DNA from: Cereibacter sphaeroides 2.4.1 | GTDB taxonomy: Bacteria > Pseudomonadota > Alphaproteobacteria > Rhodobacterales > Rhodobacteraceae | DNA: 32,000 nt | Direction: 5' to 3' | Assembly (NCBI RefSeq): GCF_000012905.2 | Contig: NC_007494.2 | Coordinates: forward strand, 870,001-902,000 | Part shown: positions 3,427 through 17,184 of the stretch, one piece after another | Layout: each line of letters begins with the position of its first letter | How positions within the stretch are numbered: position 1 is the first letter of the stretch | Translations under genes and position numbers: made by a program | The notes under the pieces: model-generated | Databases searched by the model: none | What the model was told of the DNA's origin: nothing | Seen by the model: the letters and a program-made list of their open reading frames with translations, nothing else

Positions 3427-3439
3427 TTGATTTGCCGTC

Positions 3440-3468
3440 AAAGGCGCGTGTTGTAAAAGGCGCGTGTT
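3440..3468 (+). repeat. Tandem direct repeat, 2 x AAAGGCGCGTGTT (16-nt period)
   Basis: Exact 13-mers at 3440-3452 and 3456-3468, 14 nt from the truncated end of the tRNA remnant. Confidence 0.85.
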
Positions 3469-3487
3469 CACGGTCTGGCCAAGATTT

Positions 3488-3516
3488 CCGGGTTCACTCA
3501 GGTTCAGTGAACCCGG
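3488..3516. other. Perfect 11-bp inverted repeat (hairpin) CCGGGTTCACT-N7-AGTGAACCCGG
   Basis: Read directly from the sequence. It lies about 70 nt downstream of the ampR stop on the minus strand. There is no U-tract on either strand, so terminator function is only a possibility. Confidence 0.5.
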
Positions 3517-3586
3517 GCGCGTCTCGTAAATCGCGGCCCTCCATGTTCCGCGTCCTCGGGCTGCGGCCAGCTCGCAGCGGTCGCTG

Positions 3587-4468
3587 TCATTCAGGGGCAC
3601 GCGGTTGACGAAGCACGTCGCGCATCCAGTCCAGCAAGGCCCGTGATGCTGATGTCATGCGTCGCTCCTTGGGCACGGTCAGCCAGTAGCTGCCCAGGGT
3701 CACGGTGGTGGCAAAGGGGCGTGTCAACCGACCCGCCCGAACATGGCGTTCGAACATCGGCGCAGGCAGCAAGGCAATCCCGAACCTCTCGGAGGCGAGG
3801 TCCGCCAGCCCGATCGAACTGTCCAGGATGGGCCCCGTCAGAGAAGGACAGCTTTCACCTGTCTGCGCGAACCAGGCCGGCCATTCATCCGCCCGATAGC
3901 TGCGCAGAAGCGTGTGCCGGTGAAGGTCTGACGGAACCCGCAGGCCCAGATCTGGAGCGCAGAATGGCGTCATGGGGGCATCCATGATGTGATGCGCCTC
4001 GAGCCCCGGCCACTGGCCGTCGCCGAAGCGGATCGCCGCGTCCAGCCCCTCCCGCGCGATCTCCACCCGGTTGTTGTGTGTGGACAGGCGCAACGTGATG
4101 CCGGGATGCGCGCGGCCGAATGCCTGCTGCCGGGGGATGAGCCAGCCCGCGGCAAAGGTCGTCACCACGCCGATGTTGAGCACTTCGCCCGCCTGCCCCG
4201 CCGCCACCCGGTCCAGCATGCGGGCGATGTCGTCCAGCCCGCGCTCCATCACCGGGAACAGCGCCTGACCCGCATCCGTCAGCATCAGGCCACCCGGCGT
4301 TCGCTGGAACAGGATCACGCCCAGCATATCCTCCAGCCGCGCGATCTGGTGGCTGACGGCGGCCTGGGTGACGCGCAGTTCGACGGCTGCGCGGGTGAAG
4401 CTGCCCTGACGAGCGGCCACCTCGAAGGTGCGCAGGGCGTTCAGCGGGATGTCGGGACGATCTGGCAT
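3587..4468 (-). CDS. ampR: LysR-family transcriptional regulator, AmpR-like
   Basis: 293-aa ORF with an N-terminal wHTH (LNALRTFEVAARQGSFTRAAVELRVTQAAVSHQIARLE) and a LysR substrate-binding domain. It is divergently transcribed from a class C beta-lactamase gene across a 92-bp spacer, the classical ampR-ampC layout. Confidence 0.8.
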   Translation of the reverse strand: MPDRPDIPLNALRTFEVAARQGSFTRAAVELRVTQAAVSHQIARLEDMLGVILFQRTPGGLMLTDAGQALFPVMERGLDDIARMLDRVAAGQAGEVLNIGVVTTFAAGWLIPRQQAFGRAHPGITLRLSTHNNRVEIAREGLDAAIRFGDGQWPGLEAHHIMDAPMTPFCAPDLGLRVPSDLHRHTLLRSYRADEWPAWFAQTGESCPSLTGPILDSSIGLADLASERFGIALLPAPMFERHVRAGRLTRPFATTVTLGSYWLTVPKERRMTSASRALLDWMRDVLRQPRAPE

Positions 4469-4560
4469 GAGATCTACTTATGTGCAGTCCAACCCTTTGT
4501 CGTCTGCCTCGTGCAGTCGGCGCGGTCTATCCCGGCTCCGATGATCACATAGGACCGGAC

Positions 4561-5703
4561 ATGAAGCACCTTTCCCCCCTCTCCATCCTGCTCATGGTGG
4601 GCGCGCTGACGCCCGCGCTTGCGCAAGACACCACGCCGTCGTTCGAGAGCGCCGCCGCCGCGGCCTTCGAGAGCGTCATCGAGGAGCATGACATTCCCGG
4701 TCTGGTGGTGGGCGTGACCCACGGCGGACGGCACAGTTTCTATCAGACAGGCTTGGCCTCACGGGAAGATCAGCAGCCGGTAACCCCTGACACGCTTTTT
4801 GAGCTCGGTTCGATCAGCAAGATCTTCAACGTGACGCTGGCGGCCTTGGCAGAGGAGCGGGGCGCGCTGTCGCTCGATGCGCCGGTCGCCGACTATCTTC
4901 CCTCCCTGCGAGGTTCTCCTGCAGGAGAGCTGACGCTGATCGATCTGGCGACGCACCATACCGGCGGCCTCCCGTTGCAGGTGCCGGACGAAGTTGCAGA
5001 TGTAGATCGCCTGGTCGACTGGCTACGGAGTTGGCGACCGCCCGAGCCCGGTACGCGCAGCTATTCCAACATCAGCATCGGCCTATTGGGGCACATCACC
5101 GCGGGCGTGCTGGGCATGAGCTATGCTGATGCGTCCCAGACGGTTATCTTCCCGGCGCTCGGATTGAAGAGCACGTGGATCGACGTCCCCACCGATGCGA
5201 TGGGACGCTACGCCTTCGGCTATGACCGCAAGACAGACGCGCCAACCCGGGTTACGCCCGGCGTGCTGGACGATGAAGCGTACGGGGTAAAATCCTCCGC
5301 TCGCGACATGCTGACGCTGCTCGACCTCGAGCTTGGAACCGGCACTGCCTCGCCCGAAGTTCAAACGGCGGTGGCCACCACGCAGGAGGGCCGGTTCCAG
5401 ACCCGCCTGTACACGCAGGCCATGATATGGGAGGCCTATCCTTGGCCTGTCGACCCAGAGCGTCTGGTGGAGGGGAACGGGTATGACTTCATCCTCCAGC
5501 CTCAGCCTGTGGACGAGGTGGACACGACACCCGATCGGAGGGTCATCCTGAACAAGACAGGTTCCACGAACGGCTTCGGTGGGTACATCGCGATCGTGCC
5601 AAGCGAGGATCTGGGCGTCGTCGTCCTTGCCAACCGCAACTACCCCAACGAGGCGCGGGTTCGAGCCACTTACGACCTGATCACTCACATCTTGGCCGAA
5701 TAA
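4561..5703 (+). CDS. ampC: Class C (AmpC) beta-lactamase with signal peptide
   Basis: ATG at 4561 with AGGA 7 nt upstream. The signal peptide is MKHLSPLSILLMVGALTPALAQ. All three class C motifs are present: S-x-x-K (GSISK), Y-x-N (YSN) and KTG (NKTGST). Confidence 0.9.
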   Translation: MKHLSPLSILLMVGALTPALAQDTTPSFESAAAAAFESVIEEHDIPGLVVGVTHGGRHSFYQTGLASREDQQPVTPDTLFELGSISKIFNVTLAALAEERGALSLDAPVADYLPSLRGSPAGELTLIDLATHHTGGLPLQVPDEVADVDRLVDWLRSWRPPEPGTRSYSNISIGLLGHITAGVLGMSYADASQTVIFPALGLKSTWIDVPTDAMGRYAFGYDRKTDAPTRVTPGVLDDEAYGVKSSARDMLTLLDLELGTGTASPEVQTAVATTQEGRFQTRLYTQAMIWEAYPWPVDPERLVEGNGYDFILQPQPVDEVDTTPDRRVILNKTGSTNGFGGYIAIVPSEDLGVVVLANRNYPNEARVRATYDLITHILAE

Positions 5704-5740
5704 GTTCGACACGCTCGGGGGGGACCGCCAAACGGCCGAA

Positions 5741-5810
5741 GCATCCGCTTCACGGCCCCCCGGAATTCCGGGCGGCAAAGGTCTGCTGGCAGCCCTTTCT
5801 CAGACCTTCA
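5741..5810 (+). repeat. Cassette-boundary repeat, copy C (hairpin plus conserved core)
   Basis: Hairpin GCCCCCCGG-AATT-CCGGGCGGC (5755-5776, 8 of 9 bp) followed by AAAGG...CAGCCCTTT...GACCTTCA. It shares the blocks GCGGC(G)AAAGG, CAGCCCTTT and GACCTTCA with copy A (8461-8501), in the same order and orientation. Confidence 0.6.
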
Positions 5811-5975
5811 AGCTCGCTGCAGCATGGTATGTGGTCCCGACGTACAGGGCGGGGAGCGGACGGTCGCTGCGGTCTGCAAGAGCGACGGCTAAGCGAAGCC
5901 AAGCAGACGCTGCGAAGTCGTTGTGTTGGCGCATACCTCAACAGAGCTCAAGCTGCAGTCGCCTTCGCTAATGTT

Positions 5976-6416
5976 CTACAACGCTTCATCTTCGTCCTCT
6001 TCGTCGCCTTCAAGGTCCTCCTCATAGTCCACCTTAAGCTGTTCAATCAACTCCACGGTGATCCACTGATAGCCCATCCGCGAAACGTGCCGATAGTGCC
6101 TTTCTTTGAATGAAGCGAGGGCCGACTTGAATTGCACCATGACAAGAACGGCGTCGCTGACCTGCGGCAGGTCATCGTCGTCTAGAGCCTCAAGATATTT
6201 TGCGTCTGGCTGGCCTTCGAGCACGACCAACAAGTTTTCAAGAACCCGGTTCACGATCTTGACTTTGCCCGCACTCATAGATGCGTCGGGCTTTTTCTTT
6301 GAAAGCTCTTTCACTTCGTCGAGCAAGGACGAAAACACGTCATGACTCGCTTCATACTCAGCGACCTTTGCATCTGTTGTTATATTGGGGAAATAGTAGT
6401 GGTCTTCAAATGCCAT
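5976..6416 (-). CDS. Small protein, paralogue B of cassette 1, with a poly-acidic C-terminal tail
   Basis: 146-aa ORF. Its ATG overlaps the stop of the upstream paralogue (TAATG at 6414-6418). It shares the core LSKKKPDASMSAGKVKIVNRVLE and SDAVLVMVQF with paralogue A. The C-terminus is DYEEDLEGDEEDEDEAL. I recognise no known family. Confidence 0.75.
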   Translation of the reverse strand: MAFEDHYYFPNITTDAKVAEYEASHDVFSSLLDEVKELSKKKPDASMSAGKVKIVNRVLENLLVVLEGQPDAKYLEALDDDDLPQVSDAVLVMVQFKSALASFKERHYRHVSRMGYQWITVELIEQLKVDYEEDLEGDEEDEDEAL

Positions 6417-6811
6417 TATTTTCTTCCAATCTTTGTCGGCGGGCCAGATCGAACTTCGCTCGCCCTTCCATCCACAACATAATACCAGCCGTAACTCCCC
6501 TTGACCGACGCGCTGATCACGTTGTCAGAGCGGAATCGCTCGGCTTCTTCCATATACTGCGCAACAACAATCGTAACATCGCTGGTCGAAGGGGCGTCGT
6601 CTGGATCAAAACTATCGAAGTCGTCGAAAGGCTTGTATTTTTCTCCAAGCACCTCGTTGCCCATCTCTAACACTCTGTTTATGAGCTTGAGCTTGAACGA
6701 GTTTACTGCGTCATTTGGGTTTTTCTTTGCAAGGGCTCCTACTTCGGAATAAAGTCCCTGAAGTTGGCCGACTAGTTTTTCGAGCCGTTCTACATCCTCT
6801 TTGCTGTCCAT
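6416..6811 (-). CDS. Small protein, paralogue A of cassette 1
   Basis: The ORF-track start is 6829. The ATG at 6811 is preferred because GGAGAG lies 3 nt upstream and overlaps the stop (TAG 6820-6822) of the nuclease gene. The core LAKKNPNDAVNSFKLKLINRVLE and SDVTIVVAQY align with paralogue B. Confidence 0.75.
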   Translation of the reverse strand: MDSKEDVERLEKLVGQLQGLYSEVGALAKKNPNDAVNSFKLKLINRVLEMGNEVLGEKYKPFDDFDSFDPDDAPSTSDVTIVVAQYMEEAERFRSDNVISASVKGSYGWYYVVDGRASEVRSGPPTKIGRK

Positions 6812-6819
6812 GATCTCTC

Positions 6820-8256
6820 CTATGGGCAAGCGCGTTGAAACTCGCGGTATTTCATGTTCAGAATGTCGAGCGGTGCGCGCTGTTTACTGTCGAAGACCTC
6901 GACCATCCGCTCCAGGTCAGCATCGGTGAGGGTAATCACGGCCTTCCGCTGCCCACCCCATAGATTGACTGTGCGCTGAAACTCCGCACGCTTGAGTGGT
7001 TTCCTTGTCACGAAGACCCCGAACTTGCCAAGCTCGTCTGTTAGGTAGCGGTTGATCTGGTCGATATGCGTTCGCTCAATTGCCGCGACGTTCTTCATCT
7101 CAAAGGTGATCTGTCGCGACCCGTAGTCGTCCATCAATTCTTGAAGAAGTGGCGTCGAGCGGGTGTTGTAGAAGATCAGGTCGCGGATGGACACCCCGTC
7201 GTCCGTTCGCGCCTGCTCCTGTGCAAAGTCAAGGCTTGGATAGAATAGTGACGGCAGCAATCGCCCGACCAACTTCTCATACTTCACGTCTGCGCCGTTT
7301 GTTTTCCCTGTCGGCAACTTCTTTATCTCGGCAAATACTCGCTTTGCCGAAGTGATGGGGATTTGAGAGAACAGCGGATCGTGCGCGCAATCATCTGCCG
7401 TGCGTTCTTTCAACTGGATATACTGATCAATGACGCCATAGTTTTGGCGATTATAGTTGAGAACCTTAACCCGCGTCAGTTCCTCGGGCTTGTGCGAAAT
7501 CTCATCTTGCGGGCAGTGCTTTTCAAAATACTCGTCGTAGCTGATCCACGGGGCAAACCGCAGCCACCGCTTTGGCACAAAGATAATCGGCGAGCCATTT
7601 TCAGGGTTCACGGGCAACGGTACGCCCACTTCCCGTTTAAACATACCTAAGCGAGCATCATAGACATGCTCAACGGTGCAATCCTGGGTCGGAACGCTGA
7701 GTTTTTGGCATTGCTCAATCGTGAAGTCGATCAGAAAAGATTTCAGGAAGTTGCAGCCAATATCAGAAATGCGGTCCTTTGATATTCCTTCGATGAAGAG
7801 CTGAATCTCCTCGAAGTGCCTGAAACCGCTCTGTTGATAGCGCGGAATCACTTTGAACAGGTCAATTATCTCGCGGGCCTTATCTGCTCCAATCCGCTTT
7901 CCCTTTCGGGTGAGGGACGTGCCCAAGCCGACTTCGTCGCACTCGGAGGCGATGATCAATGTTTCGATTGCCTGCGCTTCTTTGCCTTGCGCGGCGAGAA
8001 CCCCAAGGTGATTGAAGGCGTTGATTAGGCCTATGTGCAGCCCATGATCCTGCTGAGAGGGCGATCGCCATAGCATAAAGGGGTCTAGGTAAAGGGGAAT
8101 GTCCTCATCCAGAAACGGAATCGCGAAGTCGAGATCGACCTGTGCGGCGTGAATCCCATGATAGTCTGTAAGACGAGGTCGAATAAGCAAAGGTACCGCC
8201 GCATGCTGGGGGAGGTTGCTTCGTCGATACCAAATACTGCGGGTCGTTGGCAACAA
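6820..8256 (-). CDS. Uncharacterised 478-aa protein with a C-terminal PD-(D/E)xK (RecB/Shedu-like) nuclease motif set
   Basis: Long ORF in the AT-richer region. The listed start is a TTG, so the true start is uncertain. The C-terminal 110 aa carry SIRDLIF (D), ITFEMKN (ExK) and IDQINRYL (QxxxY) in the order typical of RecB/Cas4/DUF4263-type nucleases. I do not recognise the N-terminal ~350 aa (IPLYLDPFMLW, GLGTSLTRKGKRIG). Confidence 0.6.
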   Translation of the reverse strand: MLPTTRSIWYRRSNLPQHAAVPLLIRPRLTDYHGIHAAQVDLDFAIPFLDEDIPLYLDPFMLWRSPSQQDHGLHIGLINAFNHLGVLAAQGKEAQAIETLIIASECDEVGLGTSLTRKGKRIGADKAREIIDLFKVIPRYQQSGFRHFEEIQLFIEGISKDRISDIGCNFLKSFLIDFTIEQCQKLSVPTQDCTVEHVYDARLGMFKREVGVPLPVNPENGSPIIFVPKRWLRFAPWISYDEYFEKHCPQDEISHKPEELTRVKVLNYNRQNYGVIDQYIQLKERTADDCAHDPLFSQIPITSAKRVFAEIKKLPTGKTNGADVKYEKLVGRLLPSLFYPSLDFAQEQARTDDGVSIRDLIFYNTRSTPLLQELMDDYGSRQITFEMKNVAAIERTHIDQINRYLTDELGKFGVFVTRKPLKRAEFQRTVNLWGGQRKAVITLTDADLERMVEVFDSKQRAPLDILNMKYREFQRACP

Positions 8257-8429
8257 AAGGTTGTCGATGCGTGACGTTCACTCGGTCGCTCTTCAGGGGT
8301 ATTTTACGTTCTCACGCCCGCTTTTTGACTCGGACCAGTCATTCATAGCAGCAGGCATGAAGGTTCGCTGAGGGCCGCAATTGGCCGACCTCGCAGATCC
8401 GCACGCTCATGGCGTTGAGGCCGTGTGGT

Positions 8430-8501
8430 CGCTTCCTGGGCCTCGCCGCCATCCGAGAGTGGTGCGGCGAAAGGCCGCGGACAGCCCTTTGCCGACCTTC
8501 A
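8430..8501 (+). repeat. Cassette-boundary repeat, copy A
   Basis: 8443-8487 TCGCCGCCATCCGAGAGTGGTGCGGCGAAAGGCCGCGGACAGCCC matches 14740-14784 at 38 of 45 ungapped positions. It continues ...TTTGCCGACCTTCA, matching copy C. It lies in a GC-rich non-coding spacer between divergent operons. Confidence 0.7.
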
Positions 8502-8815
8502 TGCGAGGCGCCGCGAAAGGCATGGCGCAGGCACGAGGGGCGGCTGCAGCCCTCGCATCCGCGAAGATCTTCGATTGCGGCCATCCGTCATGCGCCTGGA
8601 GAGCGACACAATCGGCAGAAGGATCACAATGAGTTTTGAGCCACCAACGGACGCTTCTATGAACGAAGGCCGCCGCTCGTGTAAGATACTGGCAACGCAG
8701 CCAGCGCATGAAATGCCAGCTTCTCGTAGGGTGAGAGATTGTCACGCAATTTTGGCAGCGCTTGATCCATAGGTTCCTTGGGCGAAGCTTCGACCATGTT
8801 GGAGGGGAAGATAGA

Positions 8816-9778
8816 TTGGACAGTTTGCAACGTGGGGCCGCGGGAAGAGACCTGGTGTCCTTTCAGGTCAGATCGCTTCTTCAAAGTAGTTGGCAGAATA
8901 TCGATCCTGAAAACGATAACGGTATCGACGGTATAATTTCCTTACGAGAAGGAAAAGCGTTCCTCGGAAGGTTATTGTTCGTTCAGGTGAAAAGCGGGCC
9001 ATCCTTCTTGTTGGACTACAAGCGGAAACGCGTCTCCGGATATATTGGGGTAAAAATTGGCAAAGATTATATAGCGACTCATCGACCACGCTGGGAAGCG
9101 CTGCCTGGCCCTGTAATTCTTGTCTATGTCGCTGAACCTGACAAGAAAACTTCATCTATTTTTTGGCAGAACCTGAAATCAGATGCATCCTATTCCTCAA
9201 CAAATAAGAATGTGGTTCTTATCCCGCGGCATCAGACATTCGGCAGCGAGGCCAAAGGAGCGCTGCGGCGATTAACAGGCTCTAAAGCTGATGATGCGCC
9301 ACTTAAGAATATCGACATGCGGAAGATTGAGCGACTGTCGCAAATTTCGGTCCATGACAGGAAATCCGCTCGACAATTCTACAGGGAATGGTCGCAATCG
9401 AACCTCCGGCACCATCCTGAATTGGGGGACATCGAAGTCACAAATGCGGGTTGGAGACATCTCACAAGGCGCAGTAGAAATCCCGAAAACATACAAAACT
9501 CATTCTTCCTGCTTGAGGCCGCACGCCAGATGATTATTCAGGGAGCTGACTGGAGACAGTTGGGCAGCGCTAAAACGCGTGAACGATCGCAGACAACCGA
9601 TGTTCTCGATGCCTTGTCTCTGCGAGCCAGCGTAACTTTCAAATCGCGAGCTCCCGCCACTGTGCAGGTAATTATTCGCAGAACGCGTTCCATCTGCAAA
9701 TTGACCGGGTCAGGAAGGTCTCGTCTATATTTCTACAGCGTCCATGAGCTTCGCCGGGGAAATTCTATATCCTACTGA
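8816..9778 (+). CDS. DUF4365-like (PD-(D/E)xK fold) protein with an uncharacterised C-terminal half
   Basis: The track ORF starts at TTG 8762. The in-frame TTG at 8816 has GGAGGGG 8 nt upstream and leaves the usual ~33 residues before the DUF4365 signature. That signature is DNGIDGIISL...LLFVQVKSG (D-x-GID ... VQVK). Start choice is uncertain. Confidence 0.6.
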   Translation: MDSLQRGAAGRDLVSFQVRSLLQSSWQNIDPENDNGIDGIISLREGKAFLGRLLFVQVKSGPSFLLDYKRKRVSGYIGVKIGKDYIATHRPRWEALPGPVILVYVAEPDKKTSSIFWQNLKSDASYSSTNKNVVLIPRHQTFGSEAKGALRRLTGSKADDAPLKNIDMRKIERLSQISVHDRKSARQFYREWSQSNLRHHPELGDIEVTNAGWRHLTRRSRNPENIQNSFFLLEAARQMIIQGADWRQLGSAKTRERSQTTDVLDALSLRASVTFKSRAPATVQVIIRRTRSICKLTGSGRSRLYFYSVHELRRGNSISY

Positions 9779-9887
9779 GTGCGGTGGTGGACGCAACGCC
9801 CAAGCACAACTGAGGCAACCCGAAGGGCCTCACCCCAACTTGCACGTATGCCGGCTTTGGGTTGCCGAAGACGTTGGTCCACCGACT

Positions 9888-10193
9888 TGACTGACTGCAC
9901 GAAACACTGAAAGTTTGCAATCATGGATTTCTGTCATGAGCCCCGCGCGAAGCGTCAGACCTCGTTCTGCATGGCAAGTAAGTGTTTGGCTGCACTCAAT
10001 TGACGCAAAGCCCTCAACAATCACTGAGAAATGGCTGTTCGGTTCCTTCGCTCTGGCGCGTTCAAACGGCAGCTATCGTGAAGCCGAGTGTGGCAACCGA
10101 TAACCCTCGACAGGCAGCTCAGGGCCGAGTCTGCATGCTGCGACCGAGCGCCCCAGAGGGCGGGAAGCCGACTGAGGGCGGTGCAGTCAGTCA
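9888..10193. repeat. 306-bp non-coding segment bounded by a perfect 13-nt inverted repeat (TGACTGACTGCAC / GTGCAGTCAGTCA)
   Basis: The left arm is 9888-9900 and the right arm is 10181-10193. It lies in the convergent gap between the DUF4365 gene and the RES gene. Internal ORFs (62-64 aa) show no coding character. Confidence 0.45.
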
Positions 10194-10248
10194 GTCTCCT
10201 TGCCGCGGCCGAGCCACGCCGCAGAAGCAAAATCGATGGGTTCTGACC

Positions 10249-11682
10249 CTAGAAACCTGGGTCACCGACGCGAGCATGATACTCGACAGGGATCTCGGCA
10301 ACATCGAAGTGAATCCCTGTCACCTCCGTTCTGATCAACGTCCCGGTGAAGCTTAGAGCGGGCTCGATTGGAACGACCGGATCAACAACCCAAACCTCAA
10401 GTCCGCCGATGAAGGTATCGTCAGTCTCTTGTCCGGCTTCAGCCACAGGTACAGGCTCACGATAGGAGACTGCTTGCACGGGAGGCTCCCCCTCATCGGG
10501 GTCTCCACTCCAGACGAACGCCTGAACGATGTCGCGTGGCACTTCCTCGTCAGCGCCGGCGATTTTGGCGGCATGAGGAAACAAGACCAAATTTGAGTGA
10601 TCGCCGCTCATTTGAGCCGAGCCGAAAATGATGCCGTCGACCCGATTCTCATCCCTAGTCCAGAGGTACTCCGCTACCACCTGGGTTGGAAGATATTCGA
10701 GTGCTTCGCGGCCAGGAATGACGGCGCGCTTGATCTCATTGTGGAAGCCCCGGAGGTAGCTCCGGTAGGCCTGCGCCCGCAGATAGTCAGGGTGAAAATA
10801 GCTCAGGCGGTTTCCAATCGAGCTGAGCTGCGTGAGGTCAAGAAGTCGAAGCGGCCGGGCCACTTCGAAGCGGCCGACGATCGACGAGCCTCCAACCGGA
10901 ACCCGTGTTTCAGCAACACAGGTCGCAACGTCAAAACTCCCGTAGAAAACTGGTATGCCGGTCACATTCATTCTGCCGGCGGTGCAATGCTCTGGCGGTG
11001 GCGGACCAAGCTGCCTGATAGGAGCGGCAAAGATCGCGCGCCGACTGGCATCATCGTTCGCGACCCGAGCCCGATAGACGAAACGGTTCTCATCTTGCGG
11101 TGTGATCGTGCGGATTGCTGCGCCGTAGTCCGTATTTTCGCCCCGTAGGATCGGCCCAAGAATCTCATCAAGACGCTCTTCTGCAACATCGCTGAAGAAG
11201 CGCCGACCGTGTTTCAGAGACTCGCAGAACGACTGCCAGAGGTCCCGATACCGGCGATCGTCGGGAAGGCGAATGACGTATTTGTCCTCGGTCGTATCGT
11301 AGCAGTCGTATCCACCATCATGGATGTCGAACTGATGTTGGGAACCGAGGAGGTCGAGCACGTCCTCCGCGATCTTGTCGTCGGAGGCGATCAGCATTTC
11401 ACTCAGGAGCGTGATCGCGCTATCGCCGTTGGCCTGCCAGCTCGTACGATCGTCATCCCCGATATAGGGCGTAGGCTCGGCTTCGCCGATCAGCTCCCGC
11501 CACACTTCGTCGATTCTCTGGCCTAGCCAGCGAATTGAAACGGTAGAACTATGATCCTGGTTGCAGTAGTCGCACTCGCGGACGCCGCCTTCAGCTTCGA
11601 TTTCGTCTGAGAGAACCTCGTCGCCGATGCACTCATCGCAGACGAAAGGCCCTACTTCGTCTTCCTCGTCGTCGTGACTCAT
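10249..11682 (-). CDS. RES-domain protein with a Cys-rich N-terminal module (HEPN/RES-NTD1-like)
   Basis: Start taken at ATG 11682 (MSHDDEEDEVGPFVCDEC...), which overlaps the helicase stop (ATGA). The 47 codons upstream in the track ORF lie inside the helicase gene. The N-terminus has CDEC...CDYC. The RES signature is YRAR...GRMNVTGIPVFYGSFDVATCVAETR (R, E) and VDGIIFGSAQMSGDHSNLVLFP (S). Confidence 0.8.
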   Translation of the reverse strand: MSHDDEEDEVGPFVCDECIGDEVLSDEIEAEGGVRECDYCNQDHSSTVSIRWLGQRIDEVWRELIGEAEPTPYIGDDDRTSWQANGDSAITLLSEMLIASDDKIAEDVLDLLGSQHQFDIHDGGYDCYDTTEDKYVIRLPDDRRYRDLWQSFCESLKHGRRFFSDVAEERLDEILGPILRGENTDYGAAIRTITPQDENRFVYRARVANDDASRRAIFAAPIRQLGPPPPEHCTAGRMNVTGIPVFYGSFDVATCVAETRVPVGGSSIVGRFEVARPLRLLDLTQLSSIGNRLSYFHPDYLRAQAYRSYLRGFHNEIKRAVIPGREALEYLPTQVVAEYLWTRDENRVDGIIFGSAQMSGDHSNLVLFPHAAKIAGADEEVPRDIVQAFVWSGDPDEGEPPVQAVSYREPVPVAEAGQETDDTFIGGLEVWVVDPVVPIEPALSFTGTLIRTEVTGIHFDVAEIPVEYHARVGDPGF

Positions 11683-12797
11683 CCGGGTACCCATTTGGTA
11701 GCAGCGACGCTGCAGATCTTTCCGTCGTGGACGAAGGCCACGCTGTACCGAGCGCGTGTGACGGCTACGTACATTTTCGTCAAGGATTTCTCGACATGTC
11801 TGATGTCGCCCGACGCGAGCCATTTGCGAGCCGGCCCGTGCGGGTAGATCAGGACCCGCTCAAAAGTCAGGCCCTTTGACTCCCCAAAATTCATAGCTTC
11901 GTCGAGATCACAATTGGTCGCAGCGGAATACCGGAGCACCTGTGGGGCGAACCGCTTCATGTATTCACCGACGTCTGCGCTGGAGACGAGAAACACTCCG
12001 TCGTGTCCCGTCACCTTGTCGTTTCGCGAAACGGTCTTCGGCTCATTCGGGAAAAAGCCGTCGCCCAGATCCGCAATGGTTTGGTTGCAGCGGTGTGTGT
12101 GGGTTTCGTACTCGATCTCGACGAGCCCCTGCTTCTTCCACAGCTCGAACTTCTTGATGATGGCCGGGCCAGAAAACACTTTGTTTTTCGAAGCGTTGTT
12201 CGTGGCAAAGGTGGCCTGCCGGTGGTCACCGACAAAGGTGACCGGGACGCCCGCTTTTAGTATCAACTCCAAGAGGTCGAGATCGTACCCGGCCATGTCC
12301 TGGATTTCGTCGATGATGATGTGGCGGAAGCGCTGCTTCAGTCGGCGCATGATAGCGCCACCCGATCGTCGGTCACACTCACAAACAAACTTCGCGATCT
12401 TGTCCGAATAAATCCGGGAGCCATCAAAAAAGTAGTGACCGCTGGTCCGCGCTTCGGGAATGTAGGGGACCGACTTCCCTTCAACCCAGTGGATGCCATC
12501 AACCCGACTCGCATGCATGGCTGAACGATAGGGACGGGCAAGCTCCCGCAGCAGAAACGAGTACCAAGAGATGACCTCCACATGGGAGGGAATGGTGCGT
12601 GTGCGTTCGTATGCCTTAAGCTGAATTTCGCGGACATTGTTGCGAGTATAGGTGATTAGTGCCGTTGCTCCCTGCCCTTGCTCGCACGCCAGCGCCTGGT
12701 CGACGACGCGCGTGGTCTTTCCGCCCCCGGCGGCGGATATCACGATGCGATTAACGGACAGCACGGGCGATATAGTCCGGAGGCGACCACTCCACAT
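11679..12797 (-). CDS. Minimal SF1 UvrD/PcrA/Rep-like helicase (GajB-like, 372 aa)
   Basis: Motifs present: I AAGGGKTT, II IIIDEIQD, III VGDHRQATF, V ESKGLTFERVLIY and VI YVAVTRARYSV. The ATG at 12797 lies 47 nt inside the OLD gene; an in-frame GTG at 12764 is an alternative start. The protein is short because there are no obvious 1B/2B insertions. Confidence 0.85.
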   Translation of the reverse strand: MWSGRLRTISPVLSVNRIVISAAGGGKTTRVVDQALACEQGQGATALITYTRNNVREIQLKAYERTRTIPSHVEVISWYSFLLRELARPYRSAMHASRVDGIHWVEGKSVPYIPEARTSGHYFFDGSRIYSDKIAKFVCECDRRSGGAIMRRLKQRFRHIIIDEIQDMAGYDLDLLELILKAGVPVTFVGDHRQATFATNNASKNKVFSGPAIIKKFELWKKQGLVEIEYETHTHRCNQTIADLGDGFFPNEPKTVSRNDKVTGHDGVFLVSSADVGEYMKRFAPQVLRYSAATNCDLDEAMNFGESKGLTFERVLIYPHGPARKWLASGDIRHVEKSLTKMYVAVTRARYSVAFVHDGKICSVAATKWVPG

Positions 12798-14349
12798 TTG
12801 TTTCGAAGAATTTAAGGCCGGTCTCAGCCTTGTATTTGATCATGTGCTCGATAGCGGAAGCTTCATCCGCGAAGGCCTTGCCGAGTACAGCGTTGATCGT
12901 CGCCAGGCCGTTCTTCTTCACGAGCTGGGGCTCGAGCGTGTGGGCCGTTTCGTCTTTATCGTATTGGATTTTAACGATGTCGGAGTTCAGGTACTCGGCG
13001 TATTTTTTCTCCAACGCGGCAACATCAGCATCGTTGTCGGTCACGATATCGGCTGTCTTTTTTAGGAGAACTGCGATTTCGAGGAAGCGCTTGAATGCGA
13101 GCGAATTCACGGAAATAACATCAACCCCATCCTCCAGCGGCATCTTGCCGTGCTTCATATGGTAGGCGCGTTGGACGATCAACTCGTCTGACGGCCCCTC
13201 CACGAGGATCGAACGCTTCGCGAGGATGAGCCGCAGCGTGTCGTGCCCCGGCAGCTTCATAAAATAGTTCTGTGTAGTCCTATCCTTCAGGTCGGTCAGG
13301 CGCACACCCTCGCCGCGCAGGAACAGAAGGACCGACTCCACGCCAAGCTTGTTGAGAACGAAGCTGCTGTGCGTCGTGATAAATATTTGCCGCGAGCCGG
13401 CGTTTGCCGCAATGTGGCCTATCAGCTCGTTGAGGCTGGCGTAGGAGAGGTGGTTTTCAGCTTCTTCAATCAGGATGATGTGGGATTTTGCCGATGTCTC
13501 CATCGCGAGCTTGATCTTGACCGAATTCTGCTCGCCTTTCCCGACGAGTGGCAAAGGGATGTCGTCCAGGTGAGGCATGATTCCTGCCTCCCAGTTCGCC
13601 CGAGCGGAGGTGTCGAGTGAAACCGAGATAACCTTGTCGCTGATCTTCCCCTTTTTTGCCGCGAGCGCGTCGTTGATCGCCTTGACCTTCGGCTCTTCAA
13701 GAAAGCGGTCCTTCATGAGCCGATAGGTCAGAGCGAGGTCAACCTTCTCTTTCGAGGTGAGGCTCTCCTTCACGATGTCGATTACGTAGCGGCTGGCTGC
13801 CGCGTTGTTCTTGATCGTACTGGCATCGATCAGGCTCGCGTGAAGTGGAATGACGCGCGAGTTTAGAATGTCGTTCTCGGCGAAATCCCTCCACTTGATC
13901 CAGTAGTACTCCATTGGGATCGTACGAATTTCGGACGGGTCGGAGACGTATTGAGCAAAGTCTTCTGCGTACGCAGGGTTGAGATCAATTAGGAGCGCCA
14001 CGCCGGGAAGGTCAAGGCCAAGGGTGTTGTTGTTGCCTTTGAGCTTCGTTAGAGCGGGATCGTCGGCTAGGTACACCTCGATTAGGATTGATGGCGGTGC
14101 CGGCGCACGACCCGCCTTTAGTGCTTCGATGTACTCAAGAACGAGATCGAGATTGAACAGATGAGGATGGAGTTCAATCTGGAGAGGCCGGCCATTGAGT
14201 TGACCGGTGAGCGCTAGGTGGATCGCTTCGAGGAGGGTGGATTTTCCACACTCGTTGTTTCCGACAATGACGTTCAGTTTGTCATTGAAGGTGACGTTTG
14301 CCTGCTTAAGGCAGCGGTAGTTTCTGATAACCGCGCGTTGGATGAACAA
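12751..14349 (-). CDS. OLD-family ATPase + TOPRIM nuclease (class 2 OLD / GajA-like)
   Basis: Walker A GNNECGKST, Walker B/D-loop HIILIEEAENHL and H-loop FITTHS. C-terminal TOPRIM with ILVEGPSDE and VTDNDAD. The track start 14400 is a TTG directly abutting a candidate -10 box. The in-frame TTG at 14349 has AAGGGAG 8 nt upstream and gives the family-typical N-terminus (M)FIQRAVIRNYRCL. Confidence 0.85.
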   Translation of the reverse strand: MFIQRAVIRNYRCLKQANVTFNDKLNVIVGNNECGKSTLLEAIHLALTGQLNGRPLQIELHPHLFNLDLVLEYIEALKAGRAPAPPSILIEVYLADDPALTKLKGNNNTLGLDLPGVALLIDLNPAYAEDFAQYVSDPSEIRTIPMEYYWIKWRDFAENDILNSRVIPLHASLIDASTIKNNAAASRYVIDIVKESLTSKEKVDLALTYRLMKDRFLEEPKVKAINDALAAKKGKISDKVISVSLDTSARANWEAGIMPHLDDIPLPLVGKGEQNSVKIKLAMETSAKSHIILIEEAENHLSYASLNELIGHIAANAGSRQIFITTHSSFVLNKLGVESVLLFLRGEGVRLTDLKDRTTQNYFMKLPGHDTLRLILAKRSILVEGPSDELIVQRAYHMKHGKMPLEDGVDVISVNSLAFKRFLEIAVLLKKTADIVTDNDADVAALEKKYAEYLNSDIVKIQYDKDETAHTLEPQLVKKNGLATINAVLGKAFADEASAIEHMIKYKAETGLKFFETNVEWSPPDYIARAVR

Positions 14350-14400
14350 ACTCGTGACTCCCTTCGCCGTGTACACTGCTATGAGGCACAGCTTAAGCAA

Positions 14401-14430
14401 AGTCTACAAGGGCGGGTGCGGCTCAATCAA
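14401..14430 (-). promoter_or_regulatory. Candidate sigma70-type promoter of the OLD-UvrD-RES operon
   Basis: The minus strand reads TTGATT (14430-14425), an 18-nt spacer, then TAGACT (14406-14401). Each hexamer matches consensus at 4 of 6 positions. This is pattern match only. Confidence 0.3.
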
Positions 14431-14726
14431 GTCTAGCCGACCAGAAGAAGCTGGATAGTGAATTCTTGGGTCGGTCGACCTTCGACCGGGTCCATCCGTG
14501 GCTGAAGCGGCCAGACTCAATGCCGTGTTTCAAATCGCAGGTAGCTTGACGGAGGCGAAGAGCAGTAAGCCTGACAGCATCTGCGATCGTGTTCAGGTGC
14601 TTTGCTGCGGCACCGCCTGAACGGCGGCTTCGGAAAGTGCTGCCACGCAGCATGAAACGACCCCGACCGGCGGCTATGGGCCGGGTGCGCTATCTTGCCG
14701 CGCTCGGCCACCTAGCAGCGGAAGTC

Positions 14727-14800
14727 CGGTTCCTGCGCATCGCCGCCCTCCGAGCGCAGGGCGGCGAAAGACCGCAGACAGCCCCTAGCTGCCGGTCGTA
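14727..14800 (+). repeat. Cassette-boundary repeat, copy B
   Basis: 14740-14784 TCGCCGCCCTCCGAGCGCAGGGCGGCGAAAGACCGCAGACAGCCC matches copy A at 38 of 45 positions. It contains a perfect 8-bp hairpin GCCGCCCT-N8-AGGGCGGC (14742-14765). It lies about 150 nt downstream of the restriction endonuclease gene end. Confidence 0.7.
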
Positions 14801-14951
14801 CGGGACGCGTCAAGACGCTAGGCGCCTTCGCAGAGTGCGGAAAGCGGTATAAGAGGTTGCGGCATCGCAGCCGCAGGCGGGACGTGCGTTTGTGGCACAA
14901 GGCAGCCAGCCTCGTTGTCTATTTGTTGCGCTTGGGGCGACGACAATCTTG

Positions 14952-15809
14952 TCAGGACAAACGATAGATGCCCAAGTCCGAGCCGGTGATCTCGCGTGCC
15001 GGAACGAGTCGATAGTGTTTCTCCTGCACGATCGAGACGTCATGTTCGTCGAAGTAGAGCTCGAACATGGCGATGACGTCGTCGCCCATGAATTGAGCAG
15101 ATACAGTCCGGGCCACGCAATGCCGGTATCGTTCGGCAGTTCGGCAGAAGATCGTGTCCTGAATTGTCTGAATCACGCCGAGCCGGTCGCTGCCACCCTT
15201 GGCCTGGACGGGGACGATGAACTGAGCGCCCTTGGAATCCAGGCCGACGTAGAGCTCGTCGATTTCGATCTGCCCGTAGTTCGGGATCTTCGTCCGAAGA
15301 TGGTTTTGCAGACTGTAGGCCGTGATACCCAGGAATATGTCGATGAGCCGGTTGTAGCGCACCTTCGCGAGCAACGCTTGCTCGTCGCCGAGCGCATACT
15401 GAGCGATGATCTCGGGGGTCGCGTCGGGGATTTTCCTGACGAGCAGTCCGGGTGTCGGCTCGATGTAGCAGAGCTTGCTGAGGCGGAAACGATAGCGGGC
15501 GTCGCCGGCGCCGAGGATAAGCCAAAAGCGGCCCGTAGGCTGACAATCCAGGATCGCCTTTGGCAGGCTGCGCCTGTAGCGGAACGTGTAGATCACGTCG
15601 CCGAGATTCTTGGGGGCCTTGACGCCCGTCCTGACGGCGGCCTCGTAGATTTCCTCGCGGCCGAACTCGAACTCCTCCATGCCCGGCCGATAGAACCGTT
15701 GGAAGATGTCGACGATGATCGCCTGATAGGCGTTCAATGTCTTCGGCTCGGCGGAAGTGACGGCCGCCTGGGCTTCTGCCGAAACGTTCTCGGGTTCAGG
15801 ATCAGCCAT
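14952..15809 (-). CDS. Putative type II restriction endonuclease (specificity unknown)
   Basis: 285-aa ORF whose ATG overlaps the methyltransferase stop by 8 nt (ATGGCTGA). It has a PD-(D/E)xK-like segment IEIDELYVGLDSKGAQFIVPVQAKG. The call rests mainly on operon context with the m5C methyltransferase and Vsr. Confidence 0.55.
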   Translation of the reverse strand: MADPEPENVSAEAQAAVTSAEPKTLNAYQAIIVDIFQRFYRPGMEEFEFGREEIYEAAVRTGVKAPKNLGDVIYTFRYRRSLPKAILDCQPTGRFWLILGAGDARYRFRLSKLCYIEPTPGLLVRKIPDATPEIIAQYALGDEQALLAKVRYNRLIDIFLGITAYSLQNHLRTKIPNYGQIEIDELYVGLDSKGAQFIVPVQAKGGSDRLGVIQTIQDTIFCRTAERYRHCVARTVSAQFMGDDVIAMFELYFDEHDVSIVQEKHYRLVPAREITGSDLGIYRLS

Positions 15810-17133
15810 TTACCACACGTAATTGGACACGCGCCGCTTCGATCTCGTGCTGCTTGCGCTTCTTTGCGCCGCTCTTTCGGTCGCGCCGCGAGGACGGCGC
15901 TGCCACTCCGAAGTGCTCCGCCGCTTCCGACATCTCCATGTAGAGCAACGAGGGCTCTCCCAAATCGATTGCACGCGCAGGCCGCTCCGGGGCGACGCCC
16001 AGTGCTCGGACTATCTCGGAGGCGACCGCGCGGGCGAGGGGCGGCGGCACGGAGTTGCCGACTTGCCTTCCGCCATGCCACTTAGTGGCGTGGAGCCTGA
16101 ACCAATCGGGGAACCCGTGAAGCCGCGCCATCTCGCGCACGGTGATGCAGCGGTTGTACTCGTAGTGGATCGGCCGAGGACTGGTGAAGGCCCCCCGGGC
16201 ACCGTCAGTGCCTGCCCTCAGAGTGTTGCAAAGGCCGCCCGGTGCCAGCTTGTAGAAGCGGCTGATCGGCTCAACCGCCCCTTGCGGGGTCTCTTGGAAG
16301 CGCCGGCGAGAAATTTCCGAATGGGCCGTGCGCGCGCTGGATGTCATCCATGTCGGCGTCCAGTTCCGGGGATAGCCGTAATGCCAGGCATCGTTGTTCA
16401 GGCAGCGCAATTCGGCCGCGTAGGTAGACGGCTCGCCCATGGCAGAGGTCCGAACAGCGTCGCTCTCCACGAGCGAGGCGAACCGATCTGCATCGGGAAG
16501 GTCCTCGATCGCGTCCCGAACGGTCGGGCCGCCAGGAAGGTGAGCGAGCGGTTTTCGCGCGTCGGCTGCATTCGTCTGGGGCGGGGGGATCTCGGGAAGC
16601 GTCTCGCCTCGCTTCGCTCCGATGAGGAAAAGGCGTTGCCGATGCTGCGGCGTTCCGTAGTCCGCCGCATCGAGAACCTTCCAAGGCAAGCGAACATCGT
16701 AGCCCGCCATGCCGAATGCGGCGACGAGCTCGCTGAGGAAGGTCCGATGGGAGCCAACCGTCAGCCCCTTGACGTTCTCGAAGACGAAGGTCCGTGCATC
16801 GAGCTCCCGCACCAGGCGTACGAACTCGAGCACCAGGCTGTTGCGTGGATCCTCCAGGGCGCGGTGCCCGATCAAGGAGAAGCCTTGGCAGGGCGGCCCA
16901 CCGAAGACACAGTCGATGGGGCGGTTCCCGATGCCGGCGGATTCGCGGATCTCCTCGGCCGTGAGCCCCACGACCGACCGCGGGATTACGGCGGTGTCGG
17001 GGAAGTTGAACTTGTGCACGGCGCAGTGCACGGGATCGATCTCGACGGCAGCGGCAACGTCGAAGCCCGCCTGCTCGAAGCCGAGCGACAGGCCTCCTGC
17101 GCCGGCGAACAGGTCGATTCCAATAGGTCTCAA
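15802..17133 (-). CDS. DNA cytosine-5 methyltransferase
   Basis: Motif I IDLFAGAGGLSLG, motif IV GGPPCQGFS, motif VI FVFENVKGL and motif X GNSVPP. The TTG start at 17133 has GAGGAAG 7 nt upstream. Confidence 0.92.
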   Translation of the reverse strand: MRPIGIDLFAGAGGLSLGFEQAGFDVAAAVEIDPVHCAVHKFNFPDTAVIPRSVVGLTAEEIRESAGIGNRPIDCVFGGPPCQGFSLIGHRALEDPRNSLVLEFVRLVRELDARTFVFENVKGLTVGSHRTFLSELVAAFGMAGYDVRLPWKVLDAADYGTPQHRQRLFLIGAKRGETLPEIPPPQTNAADARKPLAHLPGGPTVRDAIEDLPDADRFASLVESDAVRTSAMGEPSTYAAELRCLNNDAWHYGYPRNWTPTWMTSSARTAHSEISRRRFQETPQGAVEPISRFYKLAPGGLCNTLRAGTDGARGAFTSPRPIHYEYNRCITVREMARLHGFPDWFRLHATKWHGGRQVGNSVPPPLARAVASEIVRALGVAPERPARAIDLGEPSLLYMEMSEAAEHFGVAAPSSRRDRKSGAKKRKQHEIEAARVQLRVVNG

Positions 17134-17184
17134 AGGTTTGCTTCCTCGGCTGGCGCGGATCGGACTGCAGATTAGCCTACCGCA

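Follow-up and report, generated by a model that had tools for sequence, protein, structure and literature searches.

What kind of sequence separates the defence gene blocks that follow ampC in Cereibacter sphaeroides 2.4.1? The window, the 32,000-nucleotide stretch of chromosome II analysed here, had been described in an earlier note as holding three imperfect direct repeats, which it took as possible att-like scars of serial integration, a possible hotspot for cassette exchange or a host REP-like element. We find three genuine copies of a repeat of about 100 bases between the defence blocks, and these are copies of a Cereibacter-specific cassette joint in a defence-cassette array. In related strains the same sequence stands between other defence blocks, so the repeat marks sites of block swapping.

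The integrated element and its repeats

The genes of the locus, from the outer end inwards, are:

3359-3405, minus strand: 3' part of a tRNA-Val(TAC)-like gene (anticodon loop, T arm, acceptor, CCA), the outer att end
3587-4468, minus strand: ampR, LysR family (LysR domains in the gene tables)
4561-5703, plus strand: ampC, RHO-family class C beta-lactamase (Pfam Beta-lactamase, E 3e-71)
5976-8256, minus strand: cassette 1, candidate defence system PDC-M36, two B paralogues and A (PADLOC, PDC-M36B E 1e-38 and 3e-47, PDC-M36A E 7e-224)
8762-9778, plus strand: DUF4365 nuclease-like gene, cassette 2 (Pfam DUF4365, E 1.5e-28)
10249-11823, minus strand: RES/HEPN_RES_NTD1 protein, cassette 2 (Pfam RES, E 4e-20)
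11679-12797, minus strand: GajB, cassette 2 (PADLOC, E 2e-146)
12751-14400, minus strand: GajA, cassette 2 (PADLOC, E 3e-235)
14952-15809, minus strand: type II restriction enzyme, innermost block (PADLOC REase_II, E 2e-140)
15802-17133, minus strand: C5-cytosine methyltransferase, innermost block (PADLOC MTase_II, E 6e-191)
about 17185-17613, minus strand: Vsr, innermost block (gene tables)
17866-18348, minus strand: gene for a 160-aa protein, the last conserved prophage-backbone gene and inner limit of the variable region

The tRNA-Val fragment, whose reverse complement reads ...CTTTACACCGAGGATGTCGGGGGTTCGAGCCCCTCACCACCCACCA, was assigned by inspection, as ARAGORN and Rfam do not call the partial gene, and it occurs once in the window. 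Homology between C. sphaeroides (the window and strain CP033443, locus L011) and C. azotoformans (L013) begins exactly at this fragment, and the host DNA leftwards of it differs. With the fragment as att, ampR-ampC, the cassette array and the prophage thus form one integrated element, in which ampR-ampC (3587-5703) is the conserved block from the att end to the first joint. The prophage is lambda-like and has the array at one end; homology to 12 IMG/VR prophages stops at the stop codon of the 160-aa gene (window 17862-17898), and endolysin, Dam, holin, tail, head and terminase genes lie upstream of that gene. This makes the RHO-family ampC/ampR pair part of an element that is integrated at a tRNA and contains a prophage, a finding relevant to how mobile this beta-lactamase is.

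The cassettes are multigene, 2.3-5.9 kb long and of mixed gene orientation. Cassette 1 has a GC content of 51.5%, cassette 2 (8762-14400) ranges from 49 to 58%, and the RM-Vsr block (14952-17613) joins the prophage without an intervening joint. The repeats stand out from this cargo by a backbone-like GC content (65-70% versus 49-58% in the cassettes).

Detection of the repeats relied on an independent profile, built from four copies from other genomes only, with the window copies excluded. It matched copy B at 14724-14845 (E 1.4e-23), copy A at 8421-8543 (E 7e-19) and, over core and right arm only, copy C at 5772-5862 (E 1e-3), all on the plus strand; with the window copies in the profile, copy C was matched at 5737-5836 (E 1e-18). 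A repeat finder widened the A/B pair to 99 nt with 73% identity (8430-8528 versus 14727-14825), and a 24-nt core pattern hit only A and B in the window, where zero matches are expected by chance. The sequences quoted earlier for A (8443-8487), B (14740-14784) and C (5755-5810) were recovered at these positions, A and B agree at 38 of 45 positions as first counted, and the shared orientation holds, as does the placement of the copies in the gaps between ampC, PDC-M36, DUF4365-RES-Gabija and type II RM-Vsr. A length of about 70 nt proved too short: the real element is a 52-nt left arm plus the core and a looser right arm of about 85 nt. A fourth copy, suspected at the RM/prophage junction (17806-17829), is rejected because neither profile gave a match at about 17.8 kb and the segment could not be aligned.

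A GC-rich palindrome in intergenic DNA might also be a host REP-like repeat, dispersed and unlinked to island borders. REP and BIME sequences occur genome-wide in many intergenic copies and in both orientations. Against this, the three copies in 32 kb all lie on one strand and only at cassette borders; a core-pattern scan of 185,579 species genomes returned 88 single matches in unrelated taxa, of which none extends past the core, and IMG/VR and a metagenome collection gave just 0-2 matches and 1 match, respectively. No multi-copy genome was found among the species representatives, a set that returned no Cereibacter record and in which the window locus was possibly masked. With copies found only in cassette arrays and always in a single polarity, we reject the host REP element suggested before and give it next to no probability.

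Anatomy of the joints

The joints and their outer inverted repeats (IR-L) in the window are:

5737-5862, plus strand: copy C, the outermost (terminal) joint, with resident hairpin GGCCCCCCGGAATTCCGGGCGGC and core AAAGGTCTGCTGGCAGCCC to 5795, then the right arm of the PDC-M36 cassette
8355-8375, plus strand: IR-L of joint A, an inverted copy of A's own right arm (17 of 21 positions complementary to 8484-8504)
8429-8543, plus strand: copy A, full joint, with palindrome TCGCCGCC...GGTGCGGCGA in the left arm and core GAAAGGCCGCGGACAGCCC to 8487, then the right arm
14664-14681, plus strand: IR-L of joint B, an inverted copy of B's own right arm (16 of 18 positions complementary to 14781-14798)
14724-14845, plus strand: copy B, full joint, with a perfect 10-bp palindrome TCGCCGCCCT/AGGGCGGCGA in the left arm and core GAAAGACCGCAGACAGCCC to 14784, then the right arm

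The left arm of a full joint is highly conserved over its 52 nt and starts abruptly at CTGCGCATC, an edge that is sharp in 6/6 aligned full copies, window copy A reading CTGGGCCTC there. It contains a GC palindrome, TCGCCGCC(N8-10)GGCGGCGA, and is followed by the core GAAAGRCCGCRGNCAGCC and by the right arm, in which the blocks ..GCTGCC..GCGCAGCATGA.. and GAGGGGCGG..GCGGAC recur. The outermost joint of each array consists of core and right arm without the left (hairpin) arm. Copy C, listed earlier as one of the three copies, accordingly matches the others only from its core to the right; the hairpin it has differs in sequence and is part of the conserved ampC flank.

The earlier statement that the stems differ between copies while pairing is kept did not survive: among 7 distinct full copies, none of the 10 hairpin pairs was changed on both sides, the inner pairs are broken in most full copies, and a shuffle control yields equal values. 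The outer inverted repeat was found in only 3 of 6 full joints. Its score was equalled in 3 of 300 shuffles for joint A and in 1 of 300 for joint B, and the region of joint B (14650-14812) folds into a long single-stranded DNA palindrome (z -3.35). In A, B and the L011 joint L011_16473, IR-L pairs with the right arm of the same joint and not with that of the same cassette, which argues that a joint evolves in place as a unit.

These structures raise the question whether the joint serves expression rather than recombination, as a terminator, RNA-processing hairpin or operator between morons, with recombination incidental. On the minus strand, the strong GC hairpin does follow one operon (RM before B, PDC-M36 before C) and precede the next by 170-330 nt. 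Copy C has another hairpin in the corresponding position, and the long palindrome of joint B would suit such a role. On the other hand, no repeat has a promoter or terminator consensus or a T-run after the hairpin, and Rfam gave no match at gathering scores across the window, nor at E up to 1 over 3300-15000. The stem lacks covariation, the DUF4365 gene, an L011 gene for a 323-aa protein and the L119 genes are oppositely oriented, and the terminal copies without a left arm are left unexplained. We consider an expression or insulation module improbable.

The same joints around other cargo

We compared six Cereibacter-type loci, about the number known. Full-length copies occur in the window, L011, L013, L105 and L131, and copies of core plus right arm only in L105, L119 and L129; outside these six loci no full-length copy was found in the collections scanned. 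At least 10 different cassettes lie between or beside the joints across the six loci: PDC-M36, Gabija with RES and DUF4365, type II RM, type IIG RM, PIN_12, an HSDR_N cassette, an LmuB-like ATPase, Hachiman II, EcoRII RM and GmrSD_N(NsnA)+HEPN. Strain CP033443 has the ampC flank and the RM cassette in common with the window; both intervening cassettes differ, and a repeat copy is present at every cassette boundary. The same layout with other defence systems was seen in C. azotoformans (L013, L105), an isolate prophage (L119) and contig PVMJ01000183 (L131). Each array has one orientation, with the right arm facing the prophage. The proposed hotspot for cassette exchange is thus borne out by the arrays of L011, L013, L105, L119 and L131, and different cassettes between the same repeats, which the earlier note had suggested looking for in related strains, are found for instance when the window is set beside L011.

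The points at which similarity stops are also informative. The window, L011 and L013 are 83-85% identical as far as CAGCCC and have different cassettes beyond it. L129, a relative of L105 without the LmuB cassette and a 289-aa gene, is collinear with L105 (213/250) from tRNA-Met to GACCGCTTCCAGCCC and diverges afterwards; in L105 the resident TTC spacer is kept at the left junction, and AGG stands at the right junction. In four comparisons of outermost joints, similarity stops at CAGCCC. Joint B, on the other hand, is identical in the window and L011 from CTGCGCATC rightwards despite a different left-hand cassette, so that the break is the left edge of the left arm and not CAGCCC, which fits a homologous crossover. 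All assemblies of the 2.4.1 lineage carry an identical array; the excision or cassette deletion between copies that had been suggested as a check was therefore not seen among them. Nor was a pair of loci found that differs by exactly one cassette.

Units without an integrase, delimited by direct repeats and adjoined by a prophage, recall CIMEs and other tandem accretions (the CIMEs of ICESt1/3, SCCmec-like defence cassettes, tycheposon arrays). There, too, a mobile element alongside could supply a recombinase in trans, and the terminal junctions combine target with element arm. In its strict form this comparison would make the repeats attL/attR scars of serial integration at the prophage's own att by the prophage integrase, and a tyrosine integrase gene does lie nearby in two loci: in L129 its distance to the resident site is about 270 nt, in L105 that to the joint is 1.2 kb. 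Yet in CIMEs the repeats are the att core of the helper integrase (a tRNA or orfX end), whereas here the att is the single tRNA-Val fragment, 2.4 kb outside copy C and dissimilar to the repeats. Furthermore, the L105 array sits inside the prophage, between tRNA-Met and int (in L128 the order is int, 65 nt, tRNA-Met), and the IMG/VR relatives of the prophage, except L119, have no repeat at their ends. The att-like reading has only loose support: the common orientation, the outermost copies lacking a left arm and the CAGCCC end would suit integrase-less cassettes that were inserted serially, but scars of the resident prophage's attachment site are ruled out, and strict CIME-like accretion is very improbable.

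Recombination sites or anchors for homologous exchange

Our preferred reading, held tentatively and at slightly less than an even chance, is that the repeats serve integrase-less cassettes as recombination sites, in an integron-like or CIME-like manner, and are acted on in trans. A cassette unit would consist of right arm, defence genes, left arm and CAGCC, in this order. A resident ...CAGCCC site, located in the prophage's accessory arm, would receive such units serially and always in the same orientation. The recombinase would be supplied in trans, the cassettes encoding none, and we infer a site-specific crossover between CAGCC and the final C. Once several joints are present, ordinary or phage-type relaxed homologous recombination could replace or shuffle cassettes. 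Terminal joints without a left arm are expected if a resident target is joined to a cassette arm. The restriction of full-length and core-plus-right-arm copies to arrays, their one polarity, the different cassettes between shared flanks, the fixed hexamer that ends similarity at outermost joints, the sharp left edge of the full copies, the low-GC cargo between backbone-like joints and the integrase genes near the L129 site and the L105 joint support this reading.

Several observations count against it. No recombinase gene was found in or beside the window array, the gene tables list no Phage_integrase or resolvase domain from about -5.4 kb to +41 kb relative to the window, and no homologous protein accompanies the joints. 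In L105 and L129 the integrases are of the ordinary phage type that targets tRNA genes, and the tRNA genes targeted by the prophage integrases show no similarity to the joint. The palindrome without covariation, the joint B break at the left-arm edge, an IR-L that tracks its own joint, the static 2.4.1 array, the lack of a pair differing by one cassette and the small number of loci point the same way.

Much of this would follow if the joints were anchors for homologous recombination only, i.e., duplicated flanks of an ancestral moron slot in the phage lineage. RecA or relaxed (Rad52-type) phage recombination between joints of co-resident or incoming phages would then replace cassettes, with no dedicated recombinase and no fixed crossover. 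The absence of a joint-associated recombinase gene, the backbone GC of the joints, the identity of joint B between the window and L011 throughout the 52-nt arm and rightwards, with the break at the edge of that arm, the resident-unit behaviour suggested by IR-L and the static array are in line with such anchors. However, ten different foreign cargoes within the same arms and in a single polarity, the consistent lack of a left arm in outermost joints and the same hexamer ending similarity in four independent comparisons are not readily accommodated, and the first arrival of each low-GC cargo between native arms is left unexplained. We regard pure homology anchoring as a serious possibility, at roughly one chance in three.

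For recombination sites acted on in trans, known systems offer partial parallels. As in integron arrays and CALINs, partly palindromic sites of about 100 nt in one orientation delimit promoter-independent cargo, here mostly defence; the sites are homogeneous within a lineage, the cargo is foreign and the cassettes lack a recombinase of their own. Integron attC sites are imperfect palindromes of 57-141 nt ending in R'' (RYYYAAC) and R' (GTTRRRY) boxes; their structure is conserved while the sequence varies, and sedentary chromosomal integrons have species-specific attC families. The joints, in contrast, have neither these boxes nor compensated stems and are conserved as sequence, not structure: GTTRRRY is absent on both strands in three junction regions, and no R''...R' pair occurs anywhere in 5700-17900. 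No IntI gene turned up in the gene tables around the window. Each cassette holds several genes (2.3-5.9 kb in all), which are not uniformly oriented, and it is the accessory arm of a tRNA-integrated prophage that serves as the platform.

Sites of dif type (IMEX, pdif modules) are 28 nt long, with two 11-nt arms around an AT-rich 6-nt spacer; by eye, and set against dif consensus sequences, no such AT-rich centre was seen in the core GAAAGACCGCAGACAGCCC. The succession of hairpin, about 17 nt and junction fits the right end of an IS200/IS605-type (HUH) element. Such elements and PATEs carry similar hairpins close to each of their ends, and the genome encodes a TnpA; on inspection, the right arms of the joints show no conserved hairpin that would match.

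Among phage systems, the defence hotspots of P2, P4 and lambdoid prophages (morons near att) likewise hold variable systems at a fixed position between conserved genes, near the att end, and with contents that vary by strain. To our knowledge they are bounded by conserved genes and have no conserved repeat between successive systems, whereas here every boundary bears the same element of at least 100 nt. The PeSLs of T4-type phages are short repeated intergenic stem-loop modules that flank variable phage genes, for which, as for the joints here, a role in shuffling by recombination has been proposed. They hold an early promoter and belong to lytic phages, unlike the joints, which lack a promoter or terminator consensus, have terminal copies without a left arm and share a fixed hexamer at which similarity ends.

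A more specific proposal is an undescribed integron-like platform in Cereibacter temperate phages, whose resident ...CAGCCC site would be located beside attP in the accessory arm. Its mobile multigene defence cassettes would each carry their own site (GC palindrome, core and right arm) and be recombined by a trans-acting enzyme other than an integron integrase. We consider this possible but rather unlikely; if true, phages would be spreading a cassette-capture system of a new class, one that specialises in anti-phage defence.

As far as we know, the movement of defence systems between genomes and their clustering in islands are still poorly understood, and most described prophage hotspots are bounded by conserved genes only. 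In Cereibacter, the same short element stands at every array boundary, in several strains and species, around at least 10 unrelated defence systems. If it is a recombination site, it would provide a cassette-capture system that is small and accessible to experiment, in a model organism amenable to genetics (R. sphaeroides 2.4.1), and a sequence tag for new defence systems, such as the unannotated cassettes of L011 and L013. If it is only a homology anchor, it would still illustrate clearly how repeats guide the exchange of modules in natural prophages.

Repeat copies and limits of the mobile region

The window belongs to chromosome II of Cereibacter (Rhodobacter) sphaeroides 2.4.1. The repeats between its defence cassettes (here called joints) comprise the full joints A and B and the outermost copy C. 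The earlier note quoted and placed a sequence for each, and all three were found where it had put them; its count of 38 identical positions out of 45 between A and B was likewise reproduced. With a repeat finder, the A/B match lengthens to 99 nt (8430-8528 versus 14727-14825; 73% identity), and within the window the 24-nt core pattern is confined to A and B, no occurrence being expected in shuffles. A profile of seven copies matched the window at full length in exactly three places, each on the plus strand; to avoid circularity, a second profile was made from four copies, exclusively from other genomes. A fourth copy, previously suggested at 17806-17829 (17.8 kb), is ruled out, being unsupported by alignment and by both profiles. 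Between the tRNA fragment and ampR, no copy without the left arm scored above shuffle level.

Features of the cassette region (window coordinates; strand; feature)
3359-3405; -; 3' part of a tRNA-Val(TAC)-like gene, as assigned by inspection
3587-4468; -; ampR
4561-5703; +; ampC, RHO-family
5737-5836; +; copy C, seven-copy profile (other-genome profile: 5772-5862, E 1e-3, core and right arm only)
5976-8256; -; PDC-M36 (B, B, A), between copies C and A
8429-8528; +; copy A, seven-copy profile (other-genome profile: 8421-8543, E 7e-19)
8762-9778; +; DUF4365 gene, after copy A
10249-11823; -; RES/HEPN_RES_NTD1 protein gene
11679-14400; -; GajB and GajA, before copy B
14727-14825; +; copy B, seven-copy profile (other-genome profile: 14724-14845, E 1.4e-23)
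14952-17133; -; type II REase and C5-MTase, after copy B; then Vsr
beyond Vsr; -; prophage: 160-aa gene, endolysin, Dam, holin, tail, head and terminase genes

The cassettes have a GC content of 49-58%, the repeats of 65-70% and the flanking backbone of 67-70%. Homology between C. sphaeroides (the window and L011, a locus of CP033443) and C. azotoformans (L013, CP183925) starts abruptly at 3359, and the host DNA to the left is unrelated. The tRNA-Val-like fragment at this edge comprises the anticodon loop, the T arm GGGGG/TTCGAGC/CCCTC, the acceptor and CCA. Such an abrupt start at a tRNA-like fragment indicates a single tRNA-integrated element made up of ampR-ampC, the cassette array and the prophage; the RHO-family ampC/ampR pair thus lies inside a prophage-containing element and not in the core chromosome. 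On the inner side, twelve related IMG/VR prophages cease to show DNA homology at the stop codon of the 160-aa gene (17866), so that 5796-17865 is the variable region. These limits differ from those assumed earlier. No sequence similarity links the attachment site to the repeats, and an origin of the repeats as scars of the prophage's own att is excluded or very unlikely.

Just inside the tRNA fragment, AAAGGCGCGTGTT occurs twice in tandem (3440-3452 and 3456-3468; 0.03 expected by chance), and these copies are possibly the arm-type sites that an integrase binds in the true attP arm. The 524-aa RES-domain protein carries a HEPN/RES N-terminal domain, and its gene directly follows gajA-gajB and overlaps gajB; the divergent DUF4365 nuclease-like gene shares this cassette, an arrangement that may be an extended Gabija variant. 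A YbjQ-family gene (29871-30368, plus strand) lies reversed, with the tail chaperone genes on one side and the tape-measure gene on the other, and looks like a moron inside the tail module.

Anatomy of the joint

The left end of the joint is sharply bounded at CTGCGCATC in all six aligned full copies, copy A of the window having CTGGGCCTC there. It is followed by a GC palindrome, TCGCCGCC(N8-10)GGCGGCGA, and the core GAAAGRCCGCRGNCAGCC; left arm and core span 52 nt with a mean column identity of 86%. The right arm is looser, with the blocks GCTGCC..GCGCAGCATGA and GAGGGGCGG..GCGGAC. The outermost copies (window C, L011_C, L013_C, L105_11903 and those of L119, an IMG isolate prophage, and L129, from C. 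johrii) match from the core rightwards only.

About 100 nt upstream of A, B and L011_16473, the right arm of the same joint recurs as an inverted copy (8355-8375 for A, 14664-14681 for B, 16407-16423 in L011), forming with the joint a long imperfect palindrome around the conserved arm; joint B folds as such a palindrome in single-stranded DNA with a z of -3.35. The inverted copy is absent from the other three full joints tested.

The earlier note had argued that stem sequences differ between copies while pairing is kept; this could not be upheld, as seven distinct copies of the palindrome contain no compensatory change. Their consensus RNA structure is weak (-5.7 kcal/mol) and its covariation term is absent. 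No known RNAs or tRNAs were found in the repeats with Rfam (gathering scores and E up to 1) or ARAGORN, attC boxes are absent, and no promoter or terminator consensus lies within the repeats. By inspection, the variable columns of the conserved arm show no third-position excess in any frame. A role of the joints as regulatory or insulator modules is improbable, promoter, terminator, Rfam and covariation support all being absent.

In L105 (C. azotoformans pORIO5; 16176-16215) and L129 (flipped; about 11245-11205), the conserved int-adjacent backbone begins CCGCTTCCTGCGC(CC/TT)AGCAGACAGCAG. The int-proximal backbone (TTCCTGCGCCCAGCAGACAGCAG) resembles by eye a joint minus its 38-nt hairpin (CTGCGC ... 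GCAGACAGC), a likeness that is not significant by profile.

Cassettes and breakpoints in other genomes

In L011, ampC is 94% identical and both the ampR-ampC flank and the RM cassette are those of the window; two cassettes lie between them, one of type IIG RM and one of PIN_12. Its repeat copies are at 11176-11274, 16473-16568 and 20367-20418, the last being the B copy, interrupted by an IS after CAGCC. This insertion (20418-20769) has inverted ends GATTCTGTTGAAAAACAC / GATTGTGTTGAAAAACGC, an interior masked as N and an apparent AGCC target duplication. The order in L013 is ampC, terminal copy, HSDR_N cassette, full copy (16350-16448), 299-aa gene, IS and phage genes. L105 starts with tRNA-Met, a core and right arm copy (11903-11954) and an LmuB-like ATPase cassette, and continues with left arm and core (15001-15062), a 289-aa gene, a tyrosine integrase and the prophage. 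L119 has a core and right arm copy, a GmrSD_N(NsnA)+HEPN cassette and then the 160-aa gene. On the contig PVMJ01000183, an EcoRII RM cassette is followed by a pair of adjacent partial copies, then by Hachiman type II and a full copy; the partial copies (2792-2924) are left arm and core, then core and right arm, with cores 44 nt apart, and resemble a cassette slot that has been emptied or has collapsed.

In every array the repeat has its right arm directed into the prophage. The two ends of one IMG/VR contig carry the 160-aa gene and an integrase sharing 98% identity with the L105 enzyme, so that the arrays flank attP on either side within one phage family. The IMG/VR relative L124 (11426-13967) has other accessory genes beyond int and no joint, indicating that the int-side accessory arm also varies by joint-independent routes; among them is a 438-aa protein whose C-terminus is T5orf172/GIY-YIG-like by eye.

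Three records call for comment. In C. changlensis (L110), considered as an empty site at ampC, ABC-transporter genes follow ampC, but the divergence of the flank is too great for it to be used. In GCA_009767555.1 (L006/L135), chromosome II sequence is fused into a 3.84-Mb contig and the major tail gene directly adjoins the holin gene; the missing tape-measure region, found on a separate 3.6-kb contig (L108), reflects either a deletion or an assembly artefact. The 104-kb 'plasmid' pORIO5 (NZ_CP089971.1; L105/L123) carries leuS, lepA, rpmB, purM/N and holA and ends inside a prophage; rather than a plasmid, this record is probably a piece of chromosome that was closed on a phage repeat.

On the ampC side, identity among the window, L011 and L013 is 83-85% as far as CAGCCC, after which their cassettes differ. 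L129, whose integrase shares 95% identity with the L105 enzyme, is the L105 version without the LmuB cassette and the 289-aa gene. The two are collinear (213/250) from tRNA-Met to GACCGCTTCCAGCCC and divergent beyond. At the L105 junctions the resident TTC spacer is kept on the left and the cassette-type AGG stands on the right, which places the exchange at or just after CAGCCC.

We tentatively read the joints as recombination sites of integrase-less cassettes, with serial insertion and later shuffling, and give this slightly less than an even chance. It is favoured by the fixed hexamer boundary, the terminal copies without a left arm and the single polarity, and by the sharp arm boundary and the ten unrelated cargoes inside the same arms. 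Cassettes without an integrase would have entered one after another at a resident CAGCCC site, through a trans-acting recombinase, and homologous recombination would have shuffled them afterwards.

Joint B bears on the main rival, that the joints are homology anchors only, which we consider somewhat less likely. Between the window and L011 it is identical from CTGCGCATC rightwards and unrelated leftward, which looks like a homologous crossover; this breakpoint at the arm edge, not at CAGCCC, speaks for anchors. So do the native GC of the joints, the pairing, within one joint, of the inverted left repeat and the right arm, the lack of polymorphism across the 2.4.1 lineage (all contexts compared are identical) and the fact that no recombinase was found. 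A shared junction-adjacent protein as hidden recombinase was discarded: the DUF4365 protein of the window and the 323-aa (L011), 299-aa (L013) and 289-aa (L105) proteins are non-homologous.

Distribution and comparison with known systems

Over 185,579 species genomes, the core pattern gave 88 single matches in unrelated taxa, none extending past the core; the scan returned no Cereibacter record, the locus being masked there or the representatives lacking it. Matches numbered 0-2 in each of IMG/VR, the phage database and the metagenome collection (in IMG/VR, two for the loose core, one for the right-arm pattern and none for the left-arm pattern), blastn against the phage database gave no match, and the plasmid database gave a single one, pORIO5. 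No ampC was found in IMG/VR and no Cereibacter ampC in PLSDB; the ampC cluster comprises 25 sequence variants, drawn from C. sphaeroides, C. johrii and KD131. Dispersed REP elements, offered in the earlier note as one reading, are excluded or very unlikely.

Integron/CALIN arrays and CIME-type accretion come closest in working, but the joints differ from both in defining features: the R boxes of attC are absent, IntI was not found with the joints, and the repeats are not the helper's att as in CIME-type accretion. P2/P4-type prophage hotspots, as described, are not known to have a conserved element at each internal boundary; here the joints put one at every internal boundary. Full-text search of the papers covered found no description of this joint. 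It is a lineage-specific element, and the defence cassettes that it bounds in the accessory arms of prophages are exchangeable.
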